The notes: a model not told the origin generated them from the sequence alone. A stretch of 64,000 bases of DNA from an uncultured beta proteobacterium (GCA_963721755.1 CAVRKV010000008.1:147453-211452), one strand, 5' to 3'; positions 1 through 17,901 are shown, counted from the first letter of the stretch. Numbers and translations are program-made.

Positions 1-306
1 AATGAGGCCGAGGCTGGCGACTTTGTATTTGCAGATCCACCCTATACTGTTAGGCACAATCTTAATGGATTCGTTAAGTATAATGAGAAGCTCTTCTCGT
101 GGCACGACCAAGAGCGCTTAGCTGAAGCCCTGATTAGAGCTAGGGATCGCGGTGTGATCATAGCGTCGACAAATGCCAGCCATCCTTCAGTTCATGATTT
201 ATATAAGAACAAACGATTTAGTTTGATTACCACGTCCAGATTTTCTTCTATATCAGCTTCATCTGGCAGCCGAAAACAGTTCGAGGAACTCATCATTCTT
301 TCTTAA
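1..306 (+). CDS. DNA N6-adenine methyltransferase, Dam/D12 family, C-terminal fragment (5' end outside window)
   Basis: Frame 1 is open from base 1 to TAA at 304-306. The translation NEAEAGDFVFADPPYTV...TSRFSSISASSGSRKQFEELIILS has the DPPY catalytic motif. Its C-terminal tail aligns by eye with E. coli Dam (FVYCDPPY ... RRSISSNGGTRKKVDELLA). Confidence 0.8.
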   Translation, partial: NEAEAGDFVFADPPYTVRHNLNGFVKYNEKLFSWHDQERLAEALIRARDRGVIIASTNASHPSVHDLYKNKRFSLITTSRFSSISASSGSRKQFEELIILS

Positions 307-320
307 TTACTCAGGCCATC

Positions 321-2318
321 ATGACAAATCTTAATAAACTGATTAATACGTCCGCCACTCAAGGCAATCCTATTGATGCGCTAAGAACGTTTCTTGATAA
401 CGAAGAGAGTACGGAAGCCGCTCGGCAAGTTGATAAGATGAGATTTGTTGGTTATGTACTTGAGCTTGGTTATGACTCAGCAAAAATAATTACAAGTGAT
501 CCATACAAACTTGCCGTTGGTGGAATACCTAGGGGCTCATTTCTCATTATGACACCTGTGAGCGCAGGCAGCGCTCCTCCTCACTTCACATTGCTTCGAG
601 TAACTGGAGTTTCGCCGACACCGCTCAGCAACCAAGTACAGCAGACATATTTCGAATTACATAAGAAATCGATGCCCGAACTGGATCGGTGGACGCAGAG
701 TGAGTTGCAGTGGGGTGCGCTTGATTGTGATGTGCTTGGAATGTTTTATGCAGATCCAACAAATATGCAGCGACTAGCATTTTCGGGTGACGTTAACAAT
801 GTAGTTAGCGCTCATCGTTACAAGGTATTTTCTCCAGACGAGGCCTTACTCAAACTAATCGTCAACGGAATTGTTAACCCAGAACAGCAGTTTGAAATCG
901 GGATGTTGCGAACAATGGAGTGTGGCCTTTCCAGTAATGGAGCCACGAGCAATATTCCGGTCAATATTTCAATACGTGACTTTAAGGGCTGTCGAACAGC
1001 CATGTTCGGCAAGACACGCCTTGGAAAATCGAATGTGGTTAAGCTAATTGCCCAAGGTATGTTAGAAGCAACTCAACAAGACAATGGTGTCGGACAACTA
1101 ATTTTTGATATTAACGGCGAGTACGCCAACGATAACCCACAAGATGGAAATAAATCCATTCGTTCGGCTTATGCAGATCGCTGCCAAGTTTATGCTCTCA
1201 CCAAAAGGGAGGCGACGCCATCGAAGCCGCTCAGAATTAACTTCTATGAGCAGCCTGACTCAGGTATTGAAATACTTGCTTCAATGTTGGAGCAGGACAA
1301 TAAAACATCGAATTACGTTCGAAGCTTCGCAAATGCCAAGTTACCTTCTATTGAGTCCATCGCTACTCTAGGGCCTGATGAAAAAACCCGTCCTATTAGA
1401 AAAATACAAATGTATTGGGCCATTTTGAAAAAGGCTGGCTTCCCAGCAGATGAAGCACGCCTAAAATTAAAAGGTCTGAGAGCGCGCTACACAAAAGACT
1501 TTGATTCGCACTTTAATGACACACTTAGAACAGCTGCATACCAGTCAATTCTGGGCTCTGCGCCGCCAAACCATCCAACCAATTTAGATGAGCTTGTAAA
1601 TGAACTTGAAGTAATGGCTGGCTTTCGAAGGGAGGACTCGAACAACCCAGCCCTTTTGTCTGGTGGCAAGCAAATGTTTGATGCTGATGATATTGCGCTA
1701 CTGGAATTTTTAAAGCCAGCTGGTGGGAGTTCTGGCCCATCTATTTTACGCAGTTACATGTCCTACCATGCTCCCAATGCAGGTGATTTTATTTCTGAAA
1801 TTCTCAATCTGCTTGATGCGGGAAAAACAGTTATTCTTGATCTTGGAAATGCCACTGATCAAGTACGCCGTTATTTTTCTGAAATGCTTTCGAAAAATGT
1901 TTTTAGTCATCAGGAGAGCAAGTTTGTAAGCAATGCTCTGGGGAATCACTTTGTTCAGCTTTATTTTGAGGAAGCCCATAATCTCTTTCCTCCAGAAAGC
2001 AAAGATTTGACTGGGGTATATGCACGTTTCGCTAAGGAAGGTGCGAAATTTCATATTGGGATGGTTTACTCGACTCAGTCTCCATCAACGATAAACAGTG
2101 AGCTACTTGCCCAAACAGAGAATTTCTTTGTAGGGCACCTATCGAGTCAGGACGAAACAAGAAGTTTGTCTCGGGTTCAAATTGCCTTTGCAGGAATTGA
2201 AGAGGATATTCTTAGAGCCAAGACGCCCGGCTACATGCGTATGCTCACTATGTCTAACCGTTTTGTTATCCCGGTTCAGGCATACAAGTTTGAGGCTGTC
2301 GCTGCAAAAACGAACTAG
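321..2318 (+). CDS. HerA/FtsK-superfamily P-loop ATPase (HerA-like, DUF87-type)
   Basis: 665-aa ORF starting 14 nt after the methylase stop. Walker A is GKTRLGKS (nt 1008-1031) and the Walker B-type motif is LYFEEAHNLF (EEAH at nt 1968-1979). A distal YSTQSPSTI block is typical of HerA-type ATPases. An N-terminal beta-rich segment (VGYVLELGYDSAKI..GSFLIM) sits where the HerA barrel domain would be. Assigned by motifs only. Confidence 0.7.
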   Translation: MTNLNKLINTSATQGNPIDALRTFLDNEESTEAARQVDKMRFVGYVLELGYDSAKIITSDPYKLAVGGIPRGSFLIMTPVSAGSAPPHFTLLRVTGVSPTPLSNQVQQTYFELHKKSMPELDRWTQSELQWGALDCDVLGMFYADPTNMQRLAFSGDVNNVVSAHRYKVFSPDEALLKLIVNGIVNPEQQFEIGMLRTMECGLSSNGATSNIPVNISIRDFKGCRTAMFGKTRLGKSNVVKLIAQGMLEATQQDNGVGQLIFDINGEYANDNPQDGNKSIRSAYADRCQVYALTKREATPSKPLRINFYEQPDSGIEILASMLEQDNKTSNYVRSFANAKLPSIESIATLGPDEKTRPIRKIQMYWAILKKAGFPADEARLKLKGLRARYTKDFDSHFNDTLRTAAYQSILGSAPPNHPTNLDELVNELEVMAGFRREDSNNPALLSGGKQMFDADDIALLEFLKPAGGSSGPSILRSYMSYHAPNAGDFISEILNLLDAGKTVILDLGNATDQVRRYFSEMLSKNVFSHQESKFVSNALGNHFVQLYFEEAHNLFPPESKDLTGVYARFAKEGAKFHIGMVYSTQSPSTINSELLAQTENFFVGHLSSQDETRSLSRVQIAFAGIEEDILRAKTPGYMRMLTMSNRFVIPVQAYKFEAVAAKTN

Positions 2319-2328
2319 GGAGATTTAA

Positions 2329-3678
2329 ATGTCTTACTCTAAAGGGGCAAATCTACCTGGTCAATCTGCATCAAAGCTAGGGCACTTGGCCGTTATTCAA
2401 AGTGACTGGGTACGATCTCTTGTCTCCGAATTCGATAAGGTTGAGCCGCAAAAAGAAGACCCTAGCAACACGCTATGGAAAGCATTTGACCGAACAGGAG
2501 TAATACCACTTCGAAATGTTTGGGCTGTTGATGGATCTTTTGTGTCGATTAAATCGGAGCAAAAGCCGCCAAGAGAAATGGCATTCGTTAAAACTGCTCT
2601 TTTGGCAGTGGACCGCGTACGCCTTGAAGCCATAGACAAAGAAAATCCGCATCCTTTGCTGTTGCAAGACGTTCTAACGGGCAGCGCCGTTTTCCATGCA
2701 ACAGTGTTTCCGCTAAATAATGTACGCACACCACTTGGCTCCAACTATGACGCGGTACGCCACATCGTGCGAGATTCATTGAAAATCGATGAGGGTGGAG
2801 CCTTTTATGAGACTCTAAAATGGTTGTCTTATCGTAAGTGGGACAAAACTATAAAATCACCTTCGCCTAGTTTTTTCTGTCCCCATTGTCATGAAGATAT
2901 GGTTCAAGGTTTACCTTATGATTGTGATGAGGGGACTTGTCCGAATCCGAAATGCAAAAAAATAGTTTTCCTGACTGACATGATTGGTTTCCACTTGGAT
3001 ATGGACGAGGATAGCGCGCCCGACTCTGTGGCCTCCGCCTACATGCTTGTGATGGAACACATCATGCTCTTTACTGCCATTCGCGTTCTTTGGGGGCACA
3101 CGGACAAGAGCTTGGTTAGCGACACATTATTTATTAAAGACGGCCCTTTGACTCTGCGAAGTCAATATTCAAAATTAGTACCAAATATTCGTAAGTTTTT
3201 GCAGTATGCAAAAGATATTGGTCGCCACATTCATGTTGTTGGTCAAGAAAAAAGCGGTGCCTTTTTTGATCACTTATCTTCAATCGCGCATTTTGCACCA
3301 CCACATGATAGAGGACAATCTCCTTCCTATGCTGTGCTATCGCATGAGTTTGTACGACGCGAAGTTCATCGATCACCTGATTTGAAGAACTCTTATGGAT
3401 CGAGAACCAACTGGGGGGAAAAGGTGTACTTCAAACTTGATCCCGGCACCTACTTGGTTCTCAATGTTCCGACAGGCGAATATCTAGATAATGAGAAAAT
3501 GCCTACTGACAAAGAGTTGATTGGGCTTTCTAGAATCCTAGCAACGCTACCAGACTTGATAAGTCATAAGTTCACAGGAGCCCTTTTCCCCATCGAACTT
3601 GCTGATGGAATCGCGTCAATGTCCAGCTATCCCTCAGCGACAATTCTTCAACGTTTCATTAACGAACAAGCGCCCTAG
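2329..3678 (+). CDS. NurA-like nuclease with inserted Cys4 zinc ribbon
   Basis: 449-aa ORF starting 10 nt after the HerA-like stop. NurA-type signature blocks appear in canonical order: WAVDGSF (D68, nt 2530-2532), FIKDGPL, and VVGQEKSG. A CPHC..(17)..CPNPKC insert lies at nt 2878-2955. Assigned by motifs only. Confidence 0.6.
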   Translation: MSYSKGANLPGQSASKLGHLAVIQSDWVRSLVSEFDKVEPQKEDPSNTLWKAFDRTGVIPLRNVWAVDGSFVSIKSEQKPPREMAFVKTALLAVDRVRLEAIDKENPHPLLLQDVLTGSAVFHATVFPLNNVRTPLGSNYDAVRHIVRDSLKIDEGGAFYETLKWLSYRKWDKTIKSPSPSFFCPHCHEDMVQGLPYDCDEGTCPNPKCKKIVFLTDMIGFHLDMDEDSAPDSVASAYMLVMEHIMLFTAIRVLWGHTDKSLVSDTLFIKDGPLTLRSQYSKLVPNIRKFLQYAKDIGRHIHVVGQEKSGAFFDHLSSIAHFAPPHDRGQSPSYAVLSHEFVRREVHRSPDLKNSYGSRTNWGEKVYFKLDPGTYLVLNVPTGEYLDNEKMPTDKELIGLSRILATLPDLISHKFTGALFPIELADGIASMSSYPSATILQRFINEQAP

Positions 3679-5154: not shown

Positions 5155-5244
5155 TGGCGGAAGCGGTGAGATTCGAACTCACGGAGGACTCACATCCTCG
5201 CTAGTTTTCAAGACTAGTGCCTTCAACCGCTCGGCCACGCTTCC
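5155..5244 (-). tRNA. tRNA-Ser (anticodon UGA)
   Basis: The reverse complement reads GGAAGCGTGGCCGAGCGGTTGAAGGCACTAGTCTTGAAAACTAGCGAGGATGTGAGTCCTCCGTGAGTTCGAATCTCACCGCTTCCGCCA. Acceptor stem is GGAAGCG/CGCTTCC. Anticodon stem is CTAGT/ACTAG with loop CTTGAAA. There is a long variable arm, a T arm GTGAG-TTCGAAT-CTCAC, and an encoded CCA. Confidence 0.95.
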
Positions 5245-7953: not shown

Positions 7954-8937
7954 TCATGTTCGGATTTGCTGCGGCAAATTGAACAACGCGATCCTGCGCA
8001 AACATTCATCACGATGCGCAATGCCATTGTTGGTGGGAGAGTCACCATCCGGCAAACGCAGACCGTAGCGCAAACCCTGTGCCTCGGCGTCCAGCACCCA
8101 GCGGGCCATGCGCGCCAGTTTTTCTTCTTCGTTGCGATCCGGGGTATCGGAATAATCCAGCCACAATTCTTCGCCGAGCGGCGTGGAAAATTGCTTCACC
8201 TGCAAACCCCGTTCGTGCGCATAGGCTTTCCATGCAATGCGCGGCAAGGCATCGCCTGCGGCATATTTGCGCAGTCCTGAAAAATCCTCATCACCGGCTA
8301 CGCTGCGTTTTCCTGTGCCGTCCGGCGAGCTGCCGAACGGCAGCGGGGCATCACTCAAAGGTTTAGGGTAGACCAGGCAACGCGTATCGAAATGCAGATA
8401 CGTCCAGGCGTAGAACAAGCCGAGCGGGAATTCGGTGTACAGCGTCATGCGACCTAATTGAAGCCAGCCGCGCCTTGTGGCGGGTAGAGGAAAGGCGATT
8501 TCAGTATCTTGTTCGGCGGGGGCGTCGAACTCCAGCGGCGTGTTGGAGTTTTTCCAAAACGATACGCCGGTCTGCACCAGACAAATCTGGTAGCGCGACA
8601 ATTTGCTGCGATTGTTGAAGTGGAAAATGAATCGCGCGATTTTTCCGCTGAATACAGGTTCGGCACGACCCGCGCGTATCTTCAGATGTGCAAGATTGCG
8701 AAAAGCATGCAGCATGGACATCACTGCCATCATCGTCAGCAGAAAGGTCAGCACATAACCGAGGCTCAAGTTGTAGTTGATGTCGCCGAGCAGCAGCATC
8801 AGCAGCACGAAGCAAAGCGTGAAACCCTGTTTGGTGGGGATGATGAAGATGCGGCGCTGCGTCAGTGTGACCGTGCCGGTCTCTGCGGTGCGGCTGAACG
8901 CCCAATTGCGGAATTTTTGTTGGAGTGTGGCGAGCAC
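7954..8937 (-). CDS. DUF58 domain protein (MoxR-associated, vWA-like)
   Basis: GTG start. Contains the DUF58 signature GDEDFSGLRKYAAGDALPRIAWKAYAHERGLQVKQF. Sits between the MoxR ATPase gene and the transglutaminase gene, as in known MoxR operons. Confidence 0.8.
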   Translation of the reverse strand: MLATLQQKFRNWAFSRTAETGTVTLTQRRIFIIPTKQGFTLCFVLLMLLLGDINYNLSLGYVLTFLLTMMAVMSMLHAFRNLAHLKIRAGRAEPVFSGKIARFIFHFNNRSKLSRYQICLVQTGVSFWKNSNTPLEFDAPAEQDTEIAFPLPATRRGWLQLGRMTLYTEFPLGLFYAWTYLHFDTRCLVYPKPLSDAPLPFGSSPDGTGKRSVAGDEDFSGLRKYAAGDALPRIAWKAYAHERGLQVKQFSTPLGEELWLDYSDTPDRNEEEKLARMARWVLDAEAQGLRYGLRLPDGDSPTNNGIAHRDECLRRIALFNLPQQIRT

Positions 8938-8940
8938 AGG

Positions 8941-9195
8941 CTAGTTCGCTTGCTTCCCGAATAGCTTTTGGATTAATGCATCCTTTGTCATGCTGTGATG
9001 CGATGCAACATCTGAAAGTATAGCTGCCAGTGTGCCGATGCGTAGCGGGTCATGCAGCGGGACGGTTATGTGATGTTCCTTTGCGGAGTGGCTCGTTAGC
9101 CGCACATGGCTGCCGGTCTGGCGTGTTGTCCGATAGCCAAGTTGCTCCAATGTCTTGATGAGTTGCGCGCCAGTCAGGTTGCGCGGTAACTTCAT
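8941..9195 (-). CDS. hicA: HicA-family toxin (YcfA-like mRNA interferase)
   Basis: 84 aa. LTGAQLIKTLEQLGYRTTRQTGSHVRLTS..HHITVPLHDPLRIGTLAAILSDVA follows the HicA pattern (xxLIKxLExxGW...GSHxxx...VPxHxxxLxxGTLxxILKQAG). Its ATG overlaps the upstream hicB stop (ATGA). Confidence 0.75.
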   Translation of the reverse strand: MKLPRNLTGAQLIKTLEQLGYRTTRQTGSHVRLTSHSAKEHHITVPLHDPLRIGTLAAILSDVASHHSMTKDALIQKLFGKQAN

Positions 9196-9398
9196 ACTGC
9201 AAGCACTTCTTCGCGCGTGAAGTGCAGCCTGATGATCTTTGGCGCTTTCCCTTCCTCAAAATGGCAATGCACTGCCTCGCGTACTTGCCGGTGCAGGCTT
9301 TTAATGTCGTCTGCTTCGGTAAAAATGGATTCGCCCAGCGCACGAGCTGTTAACCCGCCTTCAGGCGCCTCTTCGACTATAAATAGAATCTCGTTCAT
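9192..9398 (-). CDS. hicB: HicB-like antitoxin, N-terminal fold only (no obvious DNA-binding domain)
   Basis: 68 aa counted from the internal ATG at 9398, which is preceded by AAAGGA. MNEILFIVEEAPEGGLTARALGESIFTEADDIKSLHRQVREAV resembles the HicB/DUF1902-type fold. It is translationally coupled to hicA. Confidence 0.6.
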   Translation of the reverse strand: MNEILFIVEEAPEGGLTARALGESIFTEADDIKSLHRQVREAVHCHFEEGKAPKIIRLHFTREEVLAV

Positions 9399-9447
9399 TT
9401 TGCATCCTTTCGATGGAAAGTGGCGCATATTCTAGCATTGCTCTGCG

Positions 9448-10380
9448 TCAAGGAATGGCAACCGCTTCAATCAATTCGCGAACCAGCACACCGCTATTTT
9501 GTTTGGCGTATTCGCCGACCGCCTGCAAGCGGTGGCTGGCCACGCCGGGCAACACGGCCTGCACATCTTCGGGGATCACGGCGTCGCGCGCATCCAGCAA
9601 TGCCCAGGCGCGTGCGGCGGACAACAGCGCGAGCCCGGCGCGCGGCGACAGGCCGTGCGTGTAGCGCGCTTCTTCGCGCGTGTAACGCAGGATAGCCTGC
9701 ACATAATCGAGCAATGCGGCTGAGACGAAAATTTCCCGCGCACGTTTTTGCAATGCGAGCAGCTCGCTGCTTTCCATTTGCGGATGAAGCTGGGCGACGA
9801 TCTCGCGCCTGTCCACGCCGGACAGCAGGCCGCGCTCCGCATGCGCATCGGGATAGCCCATCTGGATGCGCATCAGGAAGCGGTCGAGCTGCGATTCCGG
9901 CAGCGCGAAGGTGCCGATCTGGTATGCCGGATTCTGTGTGGCGATGACGAAGAACGGGGCGGGCAACGCGCGCGTCGTGCCTTCGATGGTCACCTGCTGT
10001 TCTTCCATCGCTTCCAGCAGCGCGCTCTGCGCCTTGGGCGTGGCGCGATTGATCTCGTCTGCCAGGATCATTTGCGCGAAGATCGGGCCGGGATGGAATT
10101 TGAATTCACCGACCCTTGCTTCGATACCAGGGCGCTCGTATACCGACACGCCGAGGATGTCGGCGGGTAGCAGGTCGCTGGTGAACTGGATGCGCTGGAA
10201 CTGCAAGCCCAGCGTGCGCGCCAGAACATGTGCCAGCGTGGTCTTGCCGACTCCCGGCAGATCCTCGATCAACAAATGGCCGCGCGCCAGCAGGCAGGCA
10301 AGCGCGAAGCGGATCTGTTGCGGCTTGCCGAGGATGATCTGCTCGGCCTGGCGGATGACGTTGTTCAGGTTTTGGCTCAT
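9448..10380 (-). CDS. MoxR-family AAA+ ATPase
   Basis: HLLIEDLPGVGKTTLAHVLARTLGLQFQRIQFTSDLLPADILG plus ADEINRATPKAQSALLEAMEE (Walker A/B and the sensor region of the MoxR class). Confidence 0.9.
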   Translation of the reverse strand: MSQNLNNVIRQAEQIILGKPQQIRFALACLLARGHLLIEDLPGVGKTTLAHVLARTLGLQFQRIQFTSDLLPADILGVSVYERPGIEARVGEFKFHPGPIFAQMILADEINRATPKAQSALLEAMEEQQVTIEGTTRALPAPFFVIATQNPAYQIGTFALPESQLDRFLMRIQMGYPDAHAERGLLSGVDRREIVAQLHPQMESSELLALQKRAREIFVSAALLDYVQAILRYTREEARYTHGLSPRAGLALLSAARAWALLDARDAVIPEDVQAVLPGVASHRLQAVGEYAKQNSGVLVRELIEAVAIP

Positions 10381-16870: not shown

Positions 16871-16957
16871 AACACGTTTCTCCCTCCCTGAACGTGTTGT
16901 CTTGACACCCTGTTGAGACGTTCTGCCCCTGATGCCTTTGGCTCAGGGGCATTTTTT
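16871..16957 (+). ncRNA. Candidate small RNA: hairpin with C/U-rich loop plus intrinsic terminator
   Basis: Perfect 8-bp stem AACACGTT/AACGTGTT (16871-16878 / 16891-16898) with the loop TCTCCCTCCCTG. The terminator at 16925-16957 follows. No plausible ORF ends here. The 5' end is unknown. Confidence 0.35.
16925..16957 (+). terminator. Rho-independent terminator
   Basis: Stem GCCCCTGA/TCAGGGGC with a 10-nt loop, followed by ATTTTTT. Confidence 0.7.
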
Positions 16958-17105
16958 CACTGGCGGTGCTGAAGACTTTTCCAAACCGTTAATTCACATA
17001 TTTGTCATGGAACCAAAGGCAAATCGTTTAGTCCGAAACAAGCCCGGTTCGTTTGGGTATAACTTGCAGTTATATTTTATCGATTATTTATTAAGGAGAT
17101 TCAGT

Positions 17106-17219
17106 ATGAACGTCGAAAACAAAGGCAATACCAATGAGCAAGACACCGAGTTCCATGTTGCATTAGGCTGGCTTGCGGCATTGTCTGTATCGATCGCCAG
17201 CTGGGCTGGTCTTTCTTAA
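17106..17219 (+). CDS. Small hypothetical protein (37 aa, C-terminal hydrophobic segment)
   Basis: The ATG is preceded by TAAGGAGA at good spacing. Sequence MNVENKGNTNEQDTEFHVALGWLAALSVSIASWAGLS. The hairpin at 17249-17271 follows. Confidence 0.45.
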   Translation: MNVENKGNTNEQDTEFHVALGWLAALSVSIASWAGLS

Positions 17220-17248
17220 AAGTTATTTCCAGTAACAAATTATGAAAC

Positions 17249-17271
17249 AAGGGGAGGTAAAGCCTCCCCTT
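17249..17271. terminator. Hairpin terminator (possibly bidirectional)
   Basis: AAGGGGAGG-TAAAG-CCTCCCCTT, a 9-bp perfect stem with T/A-rich sequence on both sides. Confidence 0.6.
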
Positions 17272-17484
17272 GTCATTTATTGTTGTAGAAGGCGGGCAGA
17301 AGAGTTTTTGTGTAAACGTTCATTGGGCGGGAAACTGCCTGACATCAAAGGGGAGTGGTCATGATCTCGCACCACATGCCGCTTTACTGCCAGTGCGATC
17401 CGAAGAGCAGTTCAAACTGCACCTTTTCCCCAAAAACAGCGTTGATGCTGCATCGCTCCTGGAAGATGAATTTTCTGAGAAAGT

Positions 17485-17613
17485 TCAACCATACAGGAGG
17501 AAATACAAGATAAGAAGAAACAATGCGGCAAGTAAAGTAACCACGATTTTCATGGTTCGTTCAGTTCGCTTTTTGTAATGAGCAAAAAGTTCTTCATCGA
17601 ATTTATCTTCCAC
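17485..17613 (-). CDS. Possible tail-anchored mini-protein (42 aa)
   Basis: GTG preceded by AAAGGA. Sequence MEDKFDEELFAHYKKRTERTMKIVVTLLAALFLLILYFLLYG has a charged N-terminal half and one TM helix. It is below the ORF-track cutoff; I found it by reading the minus strand. Confidence 0.3.
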   Translation of the reverse strand: MEDKFDEELFAHYKKRTERTMKIVVTLLAALFLLILYFLLYG

Positions 17614-17901
17614 AATAAGTCCTTTCCGTAAATTTTAGTTTTGCCCTGAAGGCTGTTATATAAGAAGCGAAAAACAGATGAAAAGGAATTCCACTGTTTA
17701 TCGTTTTCAATAAGCAGATTTCATGGACTCCGTCTTTCGTTTATAAACCACATGCAAAGCTTTCTTAAAGCTCTGCTGAATGACGAATTCTGGCACATTG
17801 CGGACCGATGTACTTTTCTTTATCAATTCAACAGCCCATTCCGACTCAGGATAAAACCATCCCATCATAGGCGGGGTTTTGTTTTCGTGCCACGCAATGG
17901 A

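Follow-up and report, generated by a model that had tools for sequence, protein, structure and literature searches.

The first genes of a 64,000-nucleotide (nt) stretch of DNA from an uncultured beta proteobacterium (GCA_963721755.1, CAVRKV010000008.1:147453-211452; the whole stretch is called the window below) form a cassette that encodes a D12/Dam-class DNA methylase, a HerA-like ATPase and a NurA-fold nuclease. Judged from homology and gene context, this cassette is probably an ATP-dependent, methylation-gated defence module that resembles a restriction-modification (R-M) system. Both candidate restriction proteins are nearest, among solved structures, to the two subunits of one modification-dependent restriction complex, TdpA and TdpB. 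An earlier note, made from the bare sequence, had favoured a restriction-like or other defence role over housekeeping repair, and homology and gene context support this choice for what is a predicted function.

The three genes lie on the same strand, with the methylase gene as the first of the operon, and are separated by 14 nt (methylase to ATPase) and 10 nt (ATPase to nuclease). In the methylase fragment that the window contains, the DPPY motif occupies residues 12-15 (nt 34-45). The ATPase carries the Walker A motif GKTRLGKS at residues 230-237 (nt 1008-1031), in which K236 is the Walker A lysine, followed by the Walker B-type motif YFEEAHN at residues 548-554 (nt 1962-1982) and an STQSPS block at residues 584-589 (nt 2070-2087). 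In the nuclease, the blocks WAVDGSF (residues 65-71, including D68), FIKDGPL (268-274) and VVGQEKSG (303-310) were located. None of the three proteins has lost its catalytic motifs. Gene order, both gaps and every motif quoted in the earlier note, including K236 and D68, were recovered as it had given them. Scans for promoters and terminators gave no signal exceeding shuffled expectation.

The complete methylase gene was obtained from a public contig of 8 kb (L001), which was retrieved by exact look-up of the ATPase and is identical to the window across the 2,787-nt overlap. The gene encodes 264 amino acids (aa; L001 4749-5543) and starts 489 nt to the left of window base 1. The earlier assignment to the Dam/D12 family of N6-methyladenine (m6A) methylases was corroborated by Pfam MethyltransfD12 (PF02086), which matched the fragment with an E value of 1.6e-8 and the full protein with 2.7e-46, and by the PADLOC model MTase_II (E = 2.9e-30). 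The closest matches in the PDB were DpnM (M.DpnII-1, E = 2.6e-53) and E. coli Dam (E = 1e-29), both of which are GATC m6A enzymes. When the methylase was aligned to Dam, K9, R124 and P134 were found to be retained and L122 was replaced by isoleucine; in the Dam-DNA structure, these four positions are GATC-contacting residues. Since two GATC enzymes are nearest to the methylase and the Dam residues are largely kept, its site is most probably GATC, as far as homology and retained contact residues can tell. As a separate observation, GATC is enriched in the host flank (window 5300-64000), with 381 occurrences observed and 223 expected by base composition (observed/expected 1.71), and is not enriched in the genomic island that carries the cassette (L001 1774 to window 5177; observed/expected 0.87).

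The second protein was matched by Pfam DUF87/HerA (E = 1.8e-13) and by the HerA models of PADLOC (best E = 1.6e-19). A phmmer search of the PDB returned TdpA (8wet_A) as top match with an E value of 1e-26, and in the alignment of the two proteins the Walker A, Walker B and YSTQSP blocks are near-identical. HerA proteins partnered with SIR2 or DUF4297 proteins, as well as archaeal HerA, matched at 1e-8 or weaker. The protein is hence a HerA/FtsK-superfamily ATPase, as had been proposed. Against the HerA equivalogs of NCBIfam, of both the repair and the anti-phage type, it scored far under the cut-offs; for the HerA_antiphage models the scores were 54 bits (NF042943, cut-off 800) and 34 bits (NF042944, cut-off 850). 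No transmembrane segment is apparent in its 665 residues. A match to the PADLOC model mad8 (4e-10) led us to consider a MADS system, which was rejected, as only the ATPase core is shared and the other mad genes are not present.

The 449-aa product of the third gene had no direct match among the profiles of Pfam, NCBIfam, PADLOC and PHROGs, and neither phmmer nor a close-family hidden Markov model (HMM) found anything among PDB sequences. Because a direct profile match is absent, its identity as a NurA-type protein rests on structure and on transitive evidence. A first AlphaFold2 (AF2) model, for which the alignment was shallow (all sequences at least 68% identical), reached a predicted local distance difference test score (pLDDT) of 60.7 and already pointed to TdpB. 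A second model, based on a divergent alignment of 82 sequences, reached a pLDDT of 93.7 and a predicted template modelling score (pTM) of 0.92. A Foldseek search with this second model gave seven PDB matches at E <= 1e-3, every one of them a NurA-family protein. The top match was TdpB in the TdpAB-DNA complex (8wfd_G, E = 1.1e-9, template modelling (TM) score 0.50/0.60), and further matches were NurA of the Thermococcus kodakarensis HerA-NurA complex (3.9e-7), NurA of Deinococcus radiodurans (4.6e-5) and TM1739 (6.6e-5).

Distant relatives gave the same answer. Pfam NurA matched 10 of the 82 divergent full-length relatives (best E = 8.5e-26), and tblastn with the nuclease gave full-length matches to three plasmid proteins (23-25% identity, E = 8e-30 to 2e-26) that are annotated by PGAP as 'DNA double-strand break repair nuclease NurA'. 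The NurA-type call of the earlier note was thus right, by way of the structure model and the profiles of relatives; for HerA the homology had shown itself directly. The nuclease family is large, with 1,876 clusters in a 90%-identity database and 652 representatives at 50% identity. Among its near-invariant residues are D68-G69, R144, D217, E243, D271-G272 and E307-K308, a set that fits an active nuclease of the RNase H-like type. A zinc ribbon with four cysteines (C184, C187, C204 and C209), which is conserved across the family, is inserted in the predicted fold; in the window protein its motifs are CPHC (nt 2878-2889) and CPNPKC (nt 2938-2955).

The trio was then surveyed beyond the window. 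A scan with a nuclease alignment of intermediate divergence provided 80 metagenomic loci; a scan of genome contigs, made with one single protein, returned 2 loci. Where enough upstream sequence was available, a full HerA gene was found directly upstream of the nuclease gene in 45 of 46 metagenomic loci. Likewise, a D12 methylase was present in 38 of the 39 metagenomic loci with room for a further gene. A methylase of the window type lies directly upstream in 35 of these 39, a different D12 methylase is found in two (L060 and L065), and in L018 (1947-6974) a protein with a ParB N-terminal domain (316 aa) and a 275-aa protein are encoded between the D12 methylase and the ATPase. The order methylase-ATPase-nuclease also recurs in Burkholderia multivorans, in Puia sp. 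(Bacteroidota) and in Oscillibacter (Firmicutes), where the genomic surroundings of the trio are unrelated. Co-conservation across unrelated genomes of Proteobacteria, Bacteroidota and Firmicutes, on which the reading in the earlier note had depended, is therefore borne out. The nuclease is about 70% identical between Proteobacteria and Bacteroidota and 59% identical in the Firmicute; together with the order kept across phyla, this identifies a horizontally mobile cassette. One locus (L086, 6621-8101) holds a decayed copy, in which the last ~100 residues of the ATPase stand upstream of a truncated nuclease.

Within the cassette, the three genes do not evolve alike. Across 40 loci, ATPase and nuclease covary with r = 0.82, and the covariation of the methylase with either of them is r = 0.32-0.35. 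In three loci (L024, L025 and L033) the ATPase is 76-77% and the nuclease 71% identical to the window protein, and the methylase 38%; the nearest relatives of this replacement methylase are again DpnM and Dam. A constant ATPase-nuclease core with an exchangeable methylase is the pattern of R-M systems.

More distant relatives are found on plasmids, where tblastn searches with the ATPase and with the nuclease, run separately, arrived at the same five replicons. On those of Deferribacter and of the archaeon Halorarius, a methylase of the N6_N4 class adjoins the cassette. In the Deferribacter desulfuricans plasmid pDF308 (L009, 3141-6939), an IS200/IS605 element with tnpA and a TnpB-family gene splits the DUF87/HerA gene, and the cassette of this plasmid has probably been inactivated because of this interruption. 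The other three are cyanobacterial; a Tolypothrix plasmid (L008, 4659-11362) carries a helix-turn-helix (HTH) gene, DUF87, NurA and then an 816-aa exonuclease-domain protein, and the Nostoc and Calothrix plasmids are similar. An origin from phages or E. coli was considered and rejected, as no copy was found in 5,426 complete E. coli genomes or in 50,697 phage records.

Of the 80 metagenomic loci, just 2 were found to contain an integrase of the window type, and the cassettes of B. multivorans and Puia sit amid housekeeping or defence genes. When PADLOC was applied to 100 neighbouring open reading frames (ORFs) within 5 kb of the cassette at 27 loci, it identified Type III methylases, a Type IV restriction enzyme and a DRT reverse transcriptase, along with AbiEii, PD-T4-2, NsnA and several PDC candidates.

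Among described systems, the nearest relative is Tdp. TdpABC (An et al. 2025, Nat Chem Biol 21:1160) is a phosphorothioate-based defence system of thermophiles in which TdpAB forms the restriction half, and the phosphorothioate is reported to block both translocation and cleavage by TdpAB. The modification is made by the product of a single gene, tdpC, and has the consensus G(ps)ATC (PMC12914056). Several features are shared. The nearest solved structure to the window ATPase is the HerA-like TdpA, and that to the window nuclease is, by fold, its NurA-fold partner TdpB, encoded next to it. Tdp likewise comprises three genes including one for modification (PDB 8wet, 8wfd and 8y1k), and the GATC core of its consensus recalls the GATC methylases to which the window methylase is nearest. 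Even so, the cassette does not qualify as a Tdp system: it lacks the defining phosphorothioation gene and has a D12 m6A methylase instead; among the scanned genes of the 8.6-kb island, no sulfur-transfer or PAPS-reductase-like family was found that would suggest a TdpC-like gene. The mark here would be placed on the base, whereas that of Tdp is on the backbone. The window nuclease has 449 aa and a conserved four-cysteine zinc ribbon, compared with 375 aa for TdpB, and the cassette is found in mesophiles (Proteobacteria, Bacteroidota and Firmicutes) in contrast to the thermophilic hosts of Tdp.

In a search of full-text literature, with the primary Tdp paper outside its coverage, no report of a methylase-HerA-NurA system came up. 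The earlier note had recognised no named system with this exact composition, which stands to this extent; the composition is not without precedent, however, because the described Tdp restriction machine is its relative. In architecture, the cassette also bears a striking resemblance to the integrative element ICEth1 of Thermus thermophilus HB27, which carries an operon of Tth111II, the NurA-like TTC1878, the HerA-like hexameric ATPase TdtA and the N4/N6 methylase TTC1880 together with an integrase, and has integrated into a tRNA gene at the 3' end, with direct repeats at its flanks (PMC5365140). In both cases, a NurA-like nuclease, a HerA-like ATPase and a methylase share one operon on a tRNA-integrated, integrase-bearing element. 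The ICEth1 operon differs in its order (nuclease-ATPase-methylase), in the class of its methylase (PF01555) and in its additional Type IIG enzyme, of which no counterpart was found among the scanned island genes. Unlike ICEth1, the trio is without an integrase in most loci. The ICEth1 operon may itself be a member of the same broader family.

Three further comparisons were made. The HerA-NurA end-resection complexes of archaea and bacteria (T. kodakarensis, 9x1n; D. radiodurans, 7f6d; PMC9960219, PMC12977600) have both protein folds in common with the cassette, for which the same hexamer-plus-dimer arrangement and translocation-coupled nuclease may be presumed. The repair pair, however, is a housekeeping one, linked to mre11/rad50 in archaea, without a methylase and without mobility, whereas the cassette is methylase-linked and lies on a low-GC island; their proteins are also more distant matches than TdpA and TdpB. 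The SIR2-HerA and DUF4297-HerA systems (Gao_Her and Nezha) use a HerA-family ATPase as the scaffold of a defence complex, and PADLOC HerA models match the window ATPase, but here the effector is a NurA-fold nuclease and a methylase is present; scans of the island genes revealed no SIR2 or DUF4297 gene. DpnII-type Type II R-M systems share a homologous methylase (M.DpnII-1), yet their single-polypeptide, ATP-independent endonuclease is replaced by the ATPase-nuclease pair, and the NurA-fold protein is the sole nuclease candidate of the cassette.

The mechanism that we propose sets out from the three protein identities, the operon arrangement, the co-conservation and mobility of the cassette and the swapping of its modification gene. 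The DpnM/Dam-type methylase would place m6A on host DNA, with GATC as the most probable site. The HerA-like ATPase would assemble as a hexameric translocase on double-stranded DNA and would be capped by a dimer of the NurA-like nuclease, on the model of TdpAB and of the HerA-NurA complexes of archaea and bacteria; both this 6:2 complex and the coupling of nuclease activity to translocation are inferred from the solved HerA-NurA and TdpAB structures. Once loaded on DNA, the complex could processively degrade what is unmarked, and on self DNA the mark would stop loading, translocation or cleavage; its equivalent in Tdp is the phosphorothioate at G(ps)ATC. That the site is GATC and that methylation is the self signal are suggested by context, with less support than the complex itself. 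It is about an even question whether the cassette is the prototype of a large, hitherto uncharacterised class of ATP-dependent R-M systems, in which a HerA-NurA translocase-nuclease of the TdpAB type would be gated by a methylated base (m6A, with GATC as the probable site), not by phosphorothioate, with the mark serving as a stop or no-entry signal and not as protection of a cleavage site.

Several points weigh against a methylation-gated module. A weak point is the sensing of the mark: a ring translocase with its grip on the backbone would have to detect a methyl group carried by a base, in the major groove. The mark of Tdp sits on the backbone itself. That the conserved zinc ribbon is a candidate methyl sensor is speculation. 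The nuclease is linked to TdpB by the fold of a predicted model only, with TM scores of 0.50-0.60, and an HMM of its divergent family reached TdpB among PDB sequences only at E = 0.99, which amounts to no detectable sequence similarity; PADLOC has no model that covers the nuclease. An adjacent methylase is missing from one of the 39 loci (L042) and from the incomplete gene tables of the three cyanobacterial plasmids, which may represent a methylase-less variant. Known defence genes were often found beside the cassette, as the earlier note had suggested checking, but the survey of these neighbours is qualitative and has no background control. Finally, a similar NurA-HerA-methylase operon, that of the tRNA-integrated Thermus element, has been shown to act in DNA donation and not in defence (PMC5365140).

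This last point leads to an alternative in which the trio serves a mobile element similar to ICEth1 as machinery for DNA processing or DNA donation, the ATPase pumping DNA, the nuclease trimming it for export or transfer and the methylase having another purpose. In ICEth1, NurA and TdtA are needed for transjugation, a form of DNA donation (PMC5365140), and the island described here has a similar architecture, with a tRNA gene (tRNA-Ser), an integrase and 16-bp direct repeats. We regard a donation role as quite unlikely, considering that most loci of the trio lack a window-type integrase, that the B. multivorans and Puia copies have housekeeping or defence genes as neighbours and that no genes for conjugation, relaxase or replication were seen in the 8.6-kb island. 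Moreover, a role in transfer leaves the near-obligate linkage to a methylase, and the swapping of this methylase, unexplained. The pair could also act in housekeeping resection of double-strand break ends, as in archaea and Deinococcus, and be adjacent to a methylase by chance. Foldseek matches to the repair complexes 9x1n, 7f6d and 1zup are significant, and the name that PGAP gives to the distant plasmid relatives is that of a repair nuclease. This is nonetheless very improbable for a cassette that is carried on a low-GC integrative island, is patchily distributed, has been transferred horizontally across phyla and is nearly always in an operon with a methylase; mre11/rad50 was never seen with it in the loci analysed here, and the repair NurA proteins are structurally more distant than TdpB.

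A defence or abortive-infection module could, furthermore, respond to a trigger other than missing methylation, for example to DNA ends or to a protein of a phage, and its methylase could be an orphan, have a regulatory function or protect against a different nuclease. The characterised SIR2-HerA and DUF4297-HerA systems, whose PADLOC HerA models match the window ATPase, are not modification-gated, a few relatives are without an adjacent methylase, and in the island a gene for a T5orf172/GIY-YIG-like protein lies 29 nt upstream of the methylase gene. This possibility seems unlikely to us. The D12 methylase is present in all but one of the 39 informative loci and methylases of other families substitute for it in distant relatives; such linkage and substitution speak for modification being integral to the system. 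In addition, the ATPase is far nearer to TdpA than to the HerA proteins partnered with SIR2 or DUF4297, and the T5orf172 gene was not found in the other 89 loci.

If the cassette is indeed the prototype of such a methylation-gated class, the HerA-NurA core would be a general chassis that is coupled to different self-marks, provided by D12 methylases, N6_N4 methylases or TdpC phosphorothioation. Confirmation would extend the R-M repertoire by a common class based on methylation, and would place TdpAB within a broader family of HerA-NurA cores whose self-marking enzymes are interchangeable. It would also raise the mechanistic question of how a backbone-tracking ring translocase-nuclease reads a methyl group on a base. 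HerA-based defence and the architecture of TdpAB are already known; the family described here is abundant, mobile and unannotated and extends a very recent discovery. PADLOC v2 and NCBIfam (June 2026) miss the cassette, since neither offers a model for the nuclease, which is annotated as hypothetical.

In the window, the cassette is part of an integrative island whose features are collected in Table 1. The integrase gene is convergent with the cassette. A copy of the 16-bp repeat AGCGGTGAGATTCGAA inside the 3' end of the tRNA-Ser gene is matched by a left copy at L001 1774-1789, which is 3,464 nt to the left of window base 1, and in the joined sequence of L001 and the window the island between the two copies measures 8,641 bp. 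Its GC content is 45.7% between the repeats versus 55.8-56.0% outside; along the window, the profile is at ~44% across the cassette and at ~56-62% past 5.5 kb. The earlier note had described an AT-richer island beside a P4-type integrase and a tRNA gene, and the drop in GC content and the direct repeats at tRNA-Ser agree with this description.

Table 1. Genes and attachment-site features of the cassette and its island; positions refer to the window unless L001 is given.
Feature	Position	Strand	Remarks
D12/Dam-class methylase, 3' end	1..306	+	101 codons + stop; frame open from base 1, stop 304-306
HerA/FtsK-superfamily ATPase, TdpA-like, 665 aa	321..2318	+	Pfam DUF87, PADLOC HerA, PDB TdpA matches
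NurA-fold (RNase H-like) nuclease, TdpB-like, 449 aa	2329..3678	+	predicted structure and distant relatives
Tyrosine integrase, P4-type architecture, 421 aa	3736..5001	-	Pfam Arm-DNA-bind_3, Phage_int_M, Phage_integrase; NCBIfam PRK09692 7.9e-68
tRNA-Ser (anticodon UGA), integration target of the island	5155..5244	-	ARAGORN; Rfam tRNA 60 bits
Right copy of 16-bp direct repeat AGCGGTGAGATTCGAA (attachment (att) core)	5162..5177	.	inside tRNA 3' end; exact-repeat search
T5orf172/MUG113 (GIY-YIG-like) gene, 213 aa	L001 4078-4719	+	29 nt upstream of methylase

The operon does continue past window base 1, as the earlier note had thought possible, but only with the remainder of the methylase gene and one accessory gene, that for the T5orf172 protein, the C-terminal half of which is without a Pfam match. 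To the left of this gene are two divergently oriented HTH regulators, followed by an RND-adaptor gene with host-like GC content; no further ORF of at least 80 aa is listed for the recovered upstream stretch. The gene set of the island hence comprises two HTH genes, T5orf172, the D12 methylase, the ATPase, the nuclease and the integrase. A prophage replication or recombination module, which the earlier note had named as a context that would speak against its reading, was absent from the recovered upstream sequence, where the rest of the methylase, T5orf172 and the two HTH genes were found instead. The T5orf172 gene was also considered as a fourth component of the system and was rejected on its absence from every other locus. 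The conserved system thus consists of the methylase, ATPase and nuclease genes; the other genes (T5orf172, both HTH genes and the integrase) and the att sites at tRNA-Ser are those of the carrier island.

Two further regions of the window were recorded. At 8941-9428 on the minus strand lies a pair of genes, in which that for a HicA toxin of 84 aa (Pfam E = 6.5e-13) overlaps by 4 nt with an upstream ORF of 78 aa that has no Pfam match and is likely a HicB-type antitoxin. The pair is flanked by a 327-aa ORF without a Pfam match (7954-8937) and by a gene for a MoxR-type AAA ATPase (9448-10380). A second dip in GC content (~43-49%) was observed at 16900-17750, where there is no convincing long ORF, only ORFs of 95 and 102 aa. 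The neighbours of this region are a membrane-transporter-like gene on one side and an aminotransferase gene on the other; it may be what is left of another insertion or may have a regulatory role.

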